Origin: an uncultured Chloroflexia bacterium
GTDB lineage: Bacteria > Chloroflexota > Anaerolineae > CG2-30-64-16
NCBI GenBank assembly: GCA_963810095.1
Contig: CAWEMM010000012.1
Coordinates: forward strand, 640,001-704,000
Direction: 5' to 3'
DNA: 64,000 nt
Positions within the stretch are counted from its first letter, which is position 1. Every line of letters starts with the position of its first letter. The position numbers were made by a program, and so were the translations under genes. The notes under the pieces were generated by a model. It worked only from the letters and a program-made list of their open reading frames with translations. It was not told where the DNA came from and made no database searches. This document shows positions 17,557 through 21,428 of this stretch, piece by piece.

Positions 17557-17929
17557 GGGCCCCTAGCTCAGCGGTTAGAGCGGCCGGCTCGTGACGGACA
17601 AGTCTATCCGTCAAGGGCTGCCCGGCGGGTAACTGCCGGGTGACACCCTGCCAAATTCGGGGAAGCCTACGCCACAGACGGCATGGTAATCCCGAGCCAA
17701 GCCCCGCGTAAGCGGGGAAGGTGTAGAGACTAGACGGCGGGCGCCCGACGGGGGAGCAGCATGCTCGACCTGCGAAGGTCGGTCCCCACAGGGTGAAGGG
17801 ATAGTCCAGCCCACAAACCCGTCTCCGGTGCAGACTGGCGCAGCCGGTGTGGCCGGGGGTCGCGGGGCGGCGAAAGCCGCAGTGGGAGGCATAACCGGTT
17901 GGTCCTCGGTTCGAATCCGGGGGGGCCCA
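17557..17929 (+). tRNA. tRNA(CAU), probably Ile2; exons 17557-17589 and 17890-17929; CCA not encoded
   Basis: Spliced form folds as a cloverleaf: GGGCCCC/GGGGCCC acceptor, GCCGG-CT CAT AA-CCGGT anticodon arm, GGTTCGAATCC T arm. G1-C72 is paired and there is no GGG/CCC anticodon stem, so it is not initiator Met. Confidence 0.9.
17590..17889 (+). ncRNA. Group I self-splicing intron (IC3/Azoarcus-like), 300 nt, no ORF
   Basis: Exon ends in U and intron ends in G; core elements AAATTCGGGGAA, AATCCCGAGCCAAG, GAAGGTGTAGAGACTAGACGG, GGTGAAGGGATAGTCCAG; IGS GGCUG pairs with exon CGGCU with a U-G wobble; GAAA-capped P9 hairpin. Confidence 0.92.
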
Positions 17930-18016
17930 CTTCTTTGAGGTTCTACGTGCGGAGCGAGCGGCTTCTTGATAACCAGGAAGCCGCTCGCTGACATTTAAGA
18001 CACTAGCCGTCGACCG

Positions 18017-18469: not shown

Positions 18470-21171
18470 TTAGCTCGCCCCCATCTGGATCAGCCCCCTG
18501 GCGATGGCCCAAGTCGCAATTTGCGTCCGGGAGGTGAGCTCCAGCTTGGAGAGGATGTTGCCGATGTGGGCCTCGACTGTCCGCTCGCTGACTACAAGGA
18601 CCTCCGCAATGCGGCGGTTGGACTTGCCCTGCGCCACCAGCGCGGCCACCTCGCGCTCACGGGCGGTCAGGCCGCCCCATTGCGCCTTAGGCGTGCGGGG
18701 CGGCGCCGGTGCTCGGGCTCCAGCGGGAGGCTTTGGGCCCCGGCTGGCCCCCGGCTGCGGCTCATCCGGCATGGCTGCGATGGCATCGAGGGGCTCCTGG
18801 GCGCGCCCCAAAGCCCACTCCGCAGCGAGTGTGGCCGGATCGAGCGCCGCATTCACCGCCTTGAGCGCGCGCTCGTAGTCTGGCAGGTAGATCCATGCCC
18901 GTTGGACGCCCGTTCTCTCCAGCCTGGCTTCGGCGACCCCCATTAGCTGAGCGGCCCGCCTCGGTTCGCCTCGGATGCAGCTCATTTCTGCCAGTCCCGT
19001 GAGACAGGCGACGACACCTGGGTTGTCATCCAGGTCGGAATACTCCCTCGCTGCGCGACCGAACAGCCTGGCGGCCTCCTGAGTCTCGCCGCGCGCCAGG
19101 GCCAAACACCCAGCCTCGGCCATCTGATTGGTCGTTCGCTGGCCGATCTTGCCGAACAGGGCGATTGCTTCGTCCTGGTAGGCTTGCGCGTGGTTCAGAT
19201 CGCCTTCGAGCCTCATCACGTGGCCGAGCTCAGCTCGTGTGAAGGCAATCCCCGGCGAGAAACCAAGCTTCTCGTCAGCGGCAAGAGCCTCCTCATATAG
19301 TCGCCGCGCCAAGGCATAATCGCGTTCGCAAAAGGCAACCCGCGCAGCCGTGGCGAGTATCCGGGCCGCGCCCCAAATATCGCCCTTCGTCCGAAATATC
19401 GCCAGGCCCTGGTCAAGCAAACTGCGAGCCGTGCCCCAATCCTCGTTCATCATCGCGGTCGTGCCTAACTCCCGCAGCACGTACGCGACGCCGAGCAGAT
19501 TGTCGGTCTGACGGCACAGCGCAAGGCTCTCCTCCAGCAACGGTCGCGCTGCGCCGCCGTAGCCGTATGAAGACTGCATGTTGCCCGCAAGGCGCAAAGA
19601 CTCGGCCAGCACCGACCGGCTCTCTAATCCCAGGGCTCGACCGATCGAGATGCTCTCATTGCAAGCGGCCCATGCCCGAGCCATATCGTCGAACATCCAG
19701 GCAAACCTGGCCTCGTTCGCCAGCGCGCACGCGTGTTCCGGACTGGGCTTCTGAGCGAGGGACAGCCCGAGCACCTTCTGCAACCACATGCGACCCTCAT
19801 TGAGATGGCTGCGAATGCGCCAGAAGGGTTCGAGAAGATTGACCAGTCGCAAGGCATCGTGTGCAGCACGGGCGCCAATCGCTTCGTCAGTGGCGCCCTC
19901 GGCCTGGCCGATCACCCAACTTAACGCCTCTCGGAAGTTGTCATGCTCCGCGTCCAGCCGGTCGAGCCAGCCGATTGCGTTGACCCCGTGCAGCTCCGGC
20001 TCAGCCTGCTCGGCCACCCGCAGATAGAAGGCAACATGGCGGTTATACAGGCTTCCTGCCTCACCGGCTTCGCGGAGGCGTTCGCCCGCATACTGCCGGA
20101 TCGTTTCGAGCAGGAGATAGCGGGTCTCCTGGCTGCGTTGATGAACAACGCTCAAGACCACCGATTTATCCACCAGGCGCGAAACGAGGTCCAGGATCGC
20201 GCTTCCGCTGAGTGAGTCGTCACCACAGACGGCTTCGACGGCTGCCAGGTTGCTGCCGCCGGCGAAAACCGCAAGTCGGCGGAAGAGGATCTGCTCGCCC
20301 GCCGAGAGCAGCGCGTGACTCCAGTCGATTACTGACGCGAGCGTCTGGTGTCGGGCGGCGCGCTGCGCAGGTTCGTGCGAAGGAGACCGAGACTGTCAGC
20401 TAATCGGCCGGCCATTTGCTCGGCCGTCAGCACGCCAACCCGCGCAGCAGCCAGCTCGATGGCGAGCGGCATGCCGTCCAGGTGCCGGCAGATCTGCGCG
20501 ATCGGCTGCGCGTTGCCGGGCTGCAGCGCAAAACCGGGGGCTGCGGCCTGAGCCCGCTCGACAAACAAACGCACCGCCTCGGACTGCGCGACGTCGGCCA
20601 TGTCCGCAGCAGCGGACACGTCTGCAGCAGGCGACTCGACCGGGGGCAGCGAGAGCGACGGCACGCGCCAGGCGACTTCACCCGGAACGCCGAGAGGCTC
20701 GCGACTGGTCGCCACGATCCGCAGGTCCAGGCAGCACCGGTGGAGCAGTTGTTCGACCAACTGCGCGCAAGCGGCGACAAGATGTTCGCAGTTGTCAAGG
20801 ACCAGCAGGAGATCGCGCCCTTCCAGGAAGGCGACAAGGGTATCGATCAGCGAGCCGGTTCGGTCAACGATACCCAGAGCTTCCGCGACCACCGCGGGCA
20901 CGAGCGCTTCGTCTGTGAGGGGGGCAAGCTCGACCACCCACGTCCCGTCTTCGAACTCGGGGAGGACCCGCCGAGCGAGTTCGAGCGCGAGTCGCGTCTT
21001 GCCTGCGCCACCGGAGCCGGTCAGCGTCACCAGGCGGCTCGTTAGCACGAGGGGTTCAAGCTGCGCGAGTTCACGCTCGCGGCCGACGAGGCTCGTTAGC
21101 GCGAGCGGCAGGTTGGTCGGGGTATGGGGCAATACGAACGTTGTTTGTGCGTTGGTTGTGACTTGGCGCAT
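18470..21171 (-). CDS. ATPase (STAND/NB-ARC-like)-TPR-LuxR HTH transcriptional regulator (frameshifts near 20230-20340)
   Basis: LVGRERE, Walker A GSGGAGKT, LLVLDNCEH, LDGMPLAIELAAAR; C-terminal LTAREREVA...SNRRIA...TVEAHIGNILSKL. Confidence 0.9.
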
Positions 21172-21428
21172 GGTGACGATTATGACTCAAAAGGACGCCT
21201 TGTCAAGTAGTAGCGCAAGTTGCCCGCTTGCGCACGCGCCCTAACACCTGCGATCCAGGAGCCGGCCTGGTTGGTCCTCGCTTCGAATCCACGGGGCCCA
21301 CTTTTCTACCGCCGCAACGCCTCGCGCAATTCGTATCGCTCCGCCGGCACTTTCTGCCCTGTCCCTGTCGTTAATAACGTAGTTGTGGGTGGTGATGTTA
21401 TCGCTAGCGTGAAGTGGAGTGTAGAGGC

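Follow-up and report, generated by a model that had tools for sequence, protein, structure and literature searches.

The question raised by this locus is which tRNA is encoded by a gene whose anticodon loop is broken by 300 nt, and what kind of sequence breaks it. In the window, i.e., the whole 64-kb stretch of DNA that was analyzed, the split tRNA gene occupies positions 17557–17929 of the + strand. The answer reached, in which we place considerable confidence, is that this is the sole tRNA-Ile2(CAU) gene in the assembly of an Anaerolineales (Chloroflexota) genome, and that it is split at U33/C34 by a 300-nt group I intron with no detectable ORF, which would be removed by the splicing steps proposed below. 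The observations behind this answer concern the sequence, its boundaries, the conservation of the structure, the identity of the host tRNA and the distribution of the intron.

The split gene and its group I intron

Excision of the intron in silico yields a canonical cloverleaf of 73 nt, counted to the discriminator, with the anticodon CAU. The gene does not encode CCA, as A73 is followed by CUU, so that maturation of the end is also required. The expectation that standard tRNA finders could miss such a gene was borne out. With default settings, ARAGORN found zero tRNAs in the whole 64-kb window and 51 in the whole assembly, the split tRNA-Ile2 gene being missing from them. With introns allowed, it miscalled the gene as a tRNA-Thr(CGU) with an intron at 36/37, a spurious result of arbitrary intron placement that fails the U(-1)/omega-G rule. 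For split genes, the ARAGORN anticodon calls were consequently set aside, and the introns were placed with the U(-1)/omega-G rule. In the available text of the tRNAscan-SE 2.0 paper (PMC8450103), an fMet or Ile2 gene is reported as missed in 36 genomes owing to group I introns.

Concerning the surroundings of the gene, a promoter and terminator scan gave no + strand promoter and no terminator near it. A 13-bp inverted repeat is present just 3′ of the tRNA, at 17953–17989; it is without a T run and was not called a terminator, and its match to mir-1255 in Rfam (20.9 bits) was discarded as due to chance. Further downstream there is a degenerate copy of the 3′ part of the tRNA (Table 1), separated from the gene by ORFs for a LuxR/TPR regulator (18470–20173, − strand) and an AAA_16 protein (20329–21171, − strand). 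No integrase was found in the stretch from the gene to the copy. The copy may be the trace of a former integration event in the tRNA gene.

Table 1. Features of the split tRNA-Ile2(CAU) gene, of the structure modelled for its intron, and of the degenerate downstream copy (positions in the window).
Feature	Position	Strand	Basis or location
5′ exon of tRNA-Ile2(CAU), tRNA positions 1–33, ending in C32 U33 (GGCU)	17557..17589	+	97–100% identity to the 5′ half of intron-less orthologs
Group I intron, 300 nt, start CGUGACGG, end GGGAGG, omega-G at 17889	17590..17889	+	RF00028 match, structure counts, terminal G in 13/13 orthologs
3′ exon, C34 A35 U36 through discriminator A73 (17929), start CAUAACCGG	17890..17929	+	Sequence and cloverleaf
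P1, exon C29–U33 (17585–17589, CGGCU) with guide GGCUG (17616–17620), U33·G wobble	17585..17620	+	Model, pair counts, fold
L1 hairpin tgacgga/tccgtca, within the P1 loop	17592–17598 / 17607–17613	+	Model, pair counts, fold
P2, 8 bp, GUAA tetraloop	17621..17640	+	4/8 pairs compensatory; 100% of cells paired
Core domain, P3 (17647–17652 / 17736–17741) enclosing P4–P6 and the 5′ strand of P7	17647..17741	+	Model, pair counts, RNAalifold
P4	17656–17662 / 17690–17696	+	Inside P3
P5 and P5a	17665–17687	+	Inside P3
P6	17702–17717	+	Inside P3
P7, 5′ strand GACUA with 3′ strand UAGUC, pseudoknot with P3	17728–17732 / 17802–17806	+	Invariant in 13/13 orthologs
P8, enlarged: closing helix 17742–17746 / 17791–17795, inner helix 17750–17753 / 17784–17787, two hairpins	17742..17795	+	Model, pair counts, fold
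P9 three-way junction, with P9 helix 17810–17814 / 17882–17886	17810..17886	+	Model, pair counts, fold
P9a, enlarged	17818–17821 / 17863–17866	+	Arm of the P9 junction
P9b, GAAA loop	17867–17880	+	Arm of the P9 junction
Degenerate copy of the 3′ part of tRNA-Ile2 (3′ strand of the anticodon stem to discriminator, plus CUU)	21262..21303	+	Sequence match, 3.3 kb downstream

The nature of the intron was assessed with covariance models. An Rfam search of the window at gathering scores gave no match, but in E-value mode RF00028 (Intron_gpI) matched 17598–17824 over its full length (model 1–253 of 253) with 45 bits and E 3e-10, i.e., 5 bits below the gathering score of 50. This was the sole RF00028 match in the 6.13-Mb assembly. 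The introns of orthologs scored 75.5, 54.3, 51.1 and 49.4 bits, the first three passing gathering, and in general the compact relatives (49.4–75.5 bits) scored higher than the long forms of the type found in the window (36.6–45 bits). Inside the intron there is no + strand ORF of at least 60 aa, and the two minus-strand ORFs that overlap it (17611–17994 and 17730–17930) matched no Pfam family. In the genus, the intron lengths are 295, 299, 300, 300, 300, 301 and 343 nt, with differences that are non-multiples of three. The original prediction of a group I intron devoid of an ORF is thus sustained by the full-length covariance-model match, by the structure kept in the orthologs and by the lack of a + strand ORF of that size. 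As read from sequence and structure, from which its splicing is predicted, the intron at 17590–17889 belongs to the group I introns of the IC3-like kind found in bacterial tRNAs.

The secondary structure was drawn by hand on the window sequence, with helices P1, the L1 hairpin, P2, P3, P4, P5, P5a, P6, P7, P8, P8a, P9, P9a and P9b, and its pairs were counted on an alignment of 13 orthologous sequences, that of the window among them. Considering the 73 modelled pairs, 96.7% of 928 cells were standard pairs, versus 36–48% when the 3′ partners were slid by 1–3 columns, a control that is biased toward the model, since one of the aligned sequences had served to draw the structure. Changes on both sides occurred in 15 pairs, a number reached by 0 of 500 shuffles. 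These compensatory changes were mostly in P2, P5a, P6 and the L1 hairpin, while P3, P4, P5, P7 and P9 were nearly invariant among the 13 sequences, so that covariation is uninformative there. The model was corroborated in two independent ways. RNAalifold recovered P2–P6, P8, P9a and P9b. An unguided minimum-free-energy fold of the precursor (z = −3.49) recovered P1, the L1 hairpin, P2–P6, P8 and P9, but not the P7 pseudoknot. By analogy, P7 would be the guanosine-binding helix.

The extra hairpin that had been proposed in P1 is indeed present in the P1 loop. The enlargement of P8 and P9, also proposed, was corroborated by comparison with the short introns of the family members G015 (206 nt, also without the L1 hairpin) and G017 (237 nt): in the window intron P8 is branched and P9 forms a three-way junction whose P9a arm is extended, whereas G015, G017, G011 and G018 have a short, simple hairpin as P8, and the P9a of the short family members consists of a short CCC/GGG helix with a small loop at its end. 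The P1-loop hairpin and the large P8 and P9 are peripheral additions specific to the lineage.

The splice junction and the identity of the host tRNA

When the eight positions of the anticodon loop were examined as possible insertion sites, only position 2, after U33, gave both a U(-1) and an intron-terminal G. The U·G wobble in P1 and the terminal G were conserved in 13 of 13 orthologs. The exons are contiguous in 17 intron-less relatives, as found by DNA search, five of the 17 loci having also been read directly. The exon matches in these intron-less genes abut, and the sole ambiguity is a one-base overlap at the junction, due to the C with which the intron as well as the 3′ exon starts. Another piece of evidence comes from other lineages: where the exon ends in GGACU (Accumulibacter and Pirellulaceae), the guide reads GGUU, not GGCU, a compensatory change that supports a 5′ splice site after U33. 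The originally proposed site, U33|C34, is therefore upheld as the sole position that satisfies the rule, as the point at which the intron-less orthologs are joined, and by the covariation of guide and exon.

Sequencing reads were compared for one DNA run and three metatranscriptome runs, all as Logan contigs. No run was found that contained as many as half of the words sampled from the stretch. The intron-bearing form is contained in the DNA run. A contig of an RNA run that joins 17589 to 17890 was considered as a spliced product and rejected: it has other flanks and four differences, and represents another organism's uninterrupted gene or RNA.

Concerning the identity of the host, the spliced tRNA has G1-C72, G3-C70, C4-G69, C5-G68, C11-G24 and U12-A23. 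In Silva 2006 (PMC1635315), where the CAT tRNAs of 234 bacterial genomes were classified, the available text states that G3 and C70 act as negative discriminators that are complete for both Met and fMet, and that tRNA-Ile(CAT) very frequently has C4-G69 and C5-G68; by those criteria, as far as that text sets them out, the spliced tRNA is of the Ile type. The isotype assignment thus relies on published rules and on comparison with a single reference species, E. coli, to whose ileX the spliced tRNA is identical at 58 of 73 positions, versus 49 of 74 for metT.

Two other CAU tRNAs occur in the assembly, adjacent to each other on contig C6. One is an initiator (C6:481049–481122) with a GGG/CCC anticodon stem and with the initiator marks C1×A72 (a mismatch), A11-U24 and G12-C23, which are absent from the split tRNA. 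The other has the acceptor stem GGCGACG, near the GGCUACG of E. coli metT, with C3-G70, G4-C69 and A5-U68; it is identical to E. coli ileX at 58 of 73 positions and to metT at 56 of 74, and so is not separated by identity. It is assigned to Met on account of its Met-type acceptor stem and by elimination. The assembly, which is 88.5% complete, was found to contain neither a tRNA-Ile(UAU) nor a further copy of the 5′ or the 3′ exon of tRNA-Ile2. The genome has tilS (170.4 bits versus a cut-off of 93.6) and uses AUA at 1.2 per 1000 codons, as counted in 864 long ORFs.

These data bear on the alternative that the host is an elongator tRNA-Met, with which the link to lysidine would be void. ARAGORN does label the spliced gene tRNA-Met, by its anticodon, and the almost equal nearness of the other elongator CAU tRNA to ileX and metT means that identity to a single species is not enough to decide which of the two tRNAs is the Met one. 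On the other hand, the G3-C70 pair of the split tRNA is of the kind that excludes Met and fMet in the available text of Silva 2006 (PMC1635315), and it is accompanied by C4-G69 and C5-G68; the split tRNA, for its part, is nearer to ileX than to metT; the other tRNA on C6 shares its three acceptor pairs with E. coli metT; and TilS requires a substrate. A tRNA-Met host is thus considered highly improbable. The assignment to the tRNA-Ile2(CAU) type, as put forward from the start, agrees with the acceptor-stem discriminators, with the separate initiator and Met-type tRNAs, and with the presence of tilS and the use of AUA. As far as can be judged from sequence, the split gene is the only tRNA-Ile2(CAU) gene of the 88.5%-complete assembly.

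Distribution and relation to known tRNA introns

A total of 40 related genomes were searched by DNA and the loci were then read: 24 of the family, the seven other genomes of the genus included, and 16 of other families of the class. In the genus, the gene is interrupted in six genomes (introns of 295–343 nt, 79–86% identity over the gene), contiguous in none, and without a match in one, which is 89% complete. In the family as a whole, genus included, it is interrupted in 12 (G018 among them, without the 5′ exon), contiguous in seven, at a contig edge in one, and without a match in four. In the other families of the class, it is interrupted in none; the exons are contiguous in ten, only one exon was found in three, and there was no match in three. 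In G018 (L012, G018:C321:1–2235, approximately 489–844), the intron and 3′ exon directly follow a complete tRNA-Gly(UCC), and a search of the 97%-complete genome that tolerated up to two mismatches did not locate the Ile2 5′ exon. Either the gene is truncated here or the assembly is at fault. The intron of this locus has the top RF00028 score of all, 75.5 bits.

It has to be considered at this point whether the intron has decayed and no longer splices, the gene being a pseudogene and AUA being read by a tRNA that is missing from an incomplete assembly. The RF00028 score below gathering, the 88.5% completeness and the apparently 5′-truncated copy in the relative G018 could be taken in that sense. 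Against it, the core is invariant, and the peripheral helices keep their pairing by compensatory changes across genera; the U·G pair and the terminal G are kept without exception in the 13 orthologs; the assembly has no other Ile2 gene or exon copy; and the interrupted gene has been retained in nearly all of the other genomes of the genus (6/7). A splicing-dead intron is thus very unlikely, and a functional split gene remains the preferred reading.

The spread of related introns beyond the family was explored by a scan for the 21-nt J6/7-P7 motif of the window intron, with one genome per species. It gave at least 119 stretches, of which 80 were fetched, a sample that is biased toward introns with the exact motif and yields no frequency. 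Of the 80 fetched loci, 72 were called as split tRNAs by ARAGORN with introns allowed, and the CAU tRNAs were classed by the U(-1)/omega-G splice rule and by the criteria of Silva 2006 (PMC1635315) as given in its available text. Among the matches listed, 24 of the 80 were Ile2-type genes split at 33/34, from Anaerolineae, Chloroflexia, Thermoflexales, Gracilibacteria, Peregrinibacteria, Saccharimonadota, other CPR groups, Bdellovibrionales (Bdellovibrionota), Accumulibacter (Pseudomonadota), Pirellulaceae (Planctomycetota) and Bacillota; 13 were initiators split at 33/34, from Omnitrophota, CPR groups, Planctomycetia and others (two after a one-base correction of the start by eye); and 16 were Ile2 genes split at 36/37, all betaproteobacterial. 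The same core motif was also observed in other putative hosts, placed by the splice rule: at loop position 2 of tRNAs with TCG or CCG anticodons in Rhodobacterales, at position 4 of a CTT tRNA in Acidobacteriota, and at position 3 in Armatimonadota and Gemmatimonadota (L052, L080, L024, L055, L051, L058 and others). The idea that the combination of host, site and lineage was unusual did not hold, in view of the 24 Ile2-type loci at 33/34 among the matches listed and of the many phyla to which they belong; by this reading of the sequences, an Ile2 gene split at 33/34 is not rare.

As to known introns, the Azoarcus type has in common with the window intron the tRNA-Ile2 host, the location in the anticodon loop and the lack of an ORF. 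It differs in being inserted after U36, instead of after U33. The Azoarcus P1 is a 3-bp CAU/GUG helix, whereas in the window intron the guide GGCUG pairs into the anticodon stem; the L1 hairpin, the branched P8 and the three-way P9 set the window intron further apart. In the comparison, the Azoarcus type was represented by the betaproteobacterial Ile2.5 loci from the motif scan, which, among the matches listed, have the identical 21-nt J6/7-P7 motif and introns of 202–223 nt, most of them of 202–205 nt; the Azoarcus intron itself is of 205 nt according to the available text of PMC13168695. A quick tree search with the intron cores (85 rows) placed the window intron in a well-supported group of 11 family introns, together with other 33/34 introns, and placed the Azoarcus-type Ile2.5 introns (16 loci, all betaproteobacterial) inside a separate group of 19 rows with SH-aLRT 96. 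Of the claim that the core is close to that of Azoarcus, what stands is the shared core motif, while closeness in the tree is contradicted by the separate, well-supported group. Identical intron cores were seen in L061 (an Anaerolineales MAG) and G007, of the same genus, and in L026 (an Anaerolineae MAG) and G024, of the same family, which agrees with an origin of the genome in Chloroflexota.

The cyanobacterial fMet.2Ug introns share with the window intron the U33/C34 site within a CUCAUAA loop. Their host is the initiator tRNA, whereas the host in the window is without initiator marks and is a tRNA-Ile2. The fMet.2 locus L038 carries a sense-strand PD-(D/E)XK ORF, and the window intron has none. 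That locus, from an uncultured bacterium (L038:84–524, initiator 33/34 intron), encodes a 147-aa endonuclease (PDDEXK_5, 144.6 bits), which we take to be of the I-Ssp6803I kind known from Synechocystis.

The four classical bacterial classes are, according to Williams 2020 (bioRxiv 10.1101/2020.01.27.920355), Leu.3Ug, Arg.5Ug, fMet.2Ug and Ile2.5Ug (Azoarcus), to which 17 further tRNA/site classes were added there. The background given in the original prediction, i.e., an Azoarcus intron 3′ of CAU and 33/34 introns in fMet, agrees with the classes Ile2.5Ug and fMet.2Ug. The logic applied here is shared with that work, namely a covariance-model match in an ARAGORN split tRNA followed by the U(-1)/omega-G rule, and in its nomenclature the window intron would be Ile2.2Ug. 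A literature search, which for Williams 2020 covered the running text, gave no description of an Ile2 33/34 class and no occurrence of 'Ile2.2Ug', and a search on group I introns in Chloroflexi tRNAs gave nothing relevant.

Group I introns were also observed at 33/34 of fMet genes close to the organism studied: they are of 264–279 nt and occur in three genomes of the same genus (L143 in G005, L144 in G002 and L146 in G007) and in one of the family (L015 in G014). Their exons are those of the intron-less initiator of our own genome (C6:481049–481122), and the introns of G002, G005, G007 and G014 share the layout of the window intron, with an L1 hairpin, a GGGCUG guide and a GNRA-capped P2. G014 has the intron in fMet and not in Ile2, the reverse of what is found in our own genome. 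Approximately unbiased (AU) tests were non-significant (fMet.2 as a single clade, p 0.415; Ile2.2, p 0.134; Chloroflexota introns, p 0.238; 4 long-branch rows excluded), so that neither a single origin nor host switching was rejected by the trees.

In ten Ile2 33/34 introns of approximately 600–623 nt, an ORF was observed on the strand opposite to the tRNA (L023, L030, L037, L046, L047, L054, L057, L063, L079 and L085). It fills the P1 loop from the splice site to the guide (e.g., L054:759–1133), with the guide at intron position 411–413 in six of the ten. Five copies are intact, with 121–125 aa, and those of L037 and L063 look cut short or frameshifted. The product shows Cys pairs and an HH...N...H pattern; when five were tested with Pfam HNH, one was over the cut-off (22.2 bits), two were below it and two gave no match. 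A tentative interpretation is that the 33/34 introns may be one lineage that moves between CAU tRNA genes with the CUCAUAA loop (initiator and Ile2), within and between phyla; that its Ile2 branch may have been spread by the small antisense HNH-like endonuclease encoded in the P1 loop; and that the P1-loop hairpin of the window intron may be a remnant left after loss of the ORF. It is suggested by the related introns at the same site of both genes in the genus, by the ten antisense ORFs and by trees that reject neither option.

Proposed processing and its significance

Catalysis, the order of processing and the modification of the tRNA are deduced from established group I chemistry together with the anatomy of the window intron. 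P1 would form in the precursor by pairing of the guide GGCUG with CGGCU (the 5′ side of the anticodon stem together with C32-U33), with U33·G as a wobble. Exogenous guanosine bound at P7 would attack after U33; the terminal G (17889) would then occupy the same P7 site, and the freed 3′-OH of U33 would attack after it. The CU end of the 5′ exon would be joined in this way to CAUAA, and the anticodon stem-loop could form. TilS reads the anticodon stem-loop and the acceptor stem. As C34 starts the 3′ exon and the adjacent stem is held in P1, TilS would be able to convert C34 to lysidine only after ligation, with charging by Ile and reading of AUA as the outcome.

A variant of this proposal is that the intron is a genuine group I intron whose efficient splicing in vivo needs a host protein or special conditions owing to the large P8 and P9. 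It could be favoured by the competition between P1 and the anticodon stem, both of which draw on the same five exon bases, and by a P10 that in the window intron is minimal, with at most 1 bp. Since the core and the tetraloops (GUAA in L2 and GAAA in L9b) are as in small self-splicing bacterial tRNA introns, and short relatives without the peripheral additions occupy the same site, such a dependence seems unlikely, and the pathway outlined above is preferred.

The find leaves the known working of such introns unchanged, and its main value is for annotation: the window intron is an ordinary representative of a known intron type, and to the four textbook classes of bacterial tRNA introns it adds a further host/site class that is well populated. 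Default tRNA finders would show this genome without a tRNA-Ile2, and the intron mode invents a tRNA-Thr(CGU) in its place. Without provision for group I introns, the annotation and the codon-capacity estimates of MAGs from Anaerolineales, CPR and other groups will therefore be in error. In the organism, splicing at this site would mean that a ribozyme acts ahead of the lysidine switch, on which the choice between Met and Ile identity of the tRNA depends.
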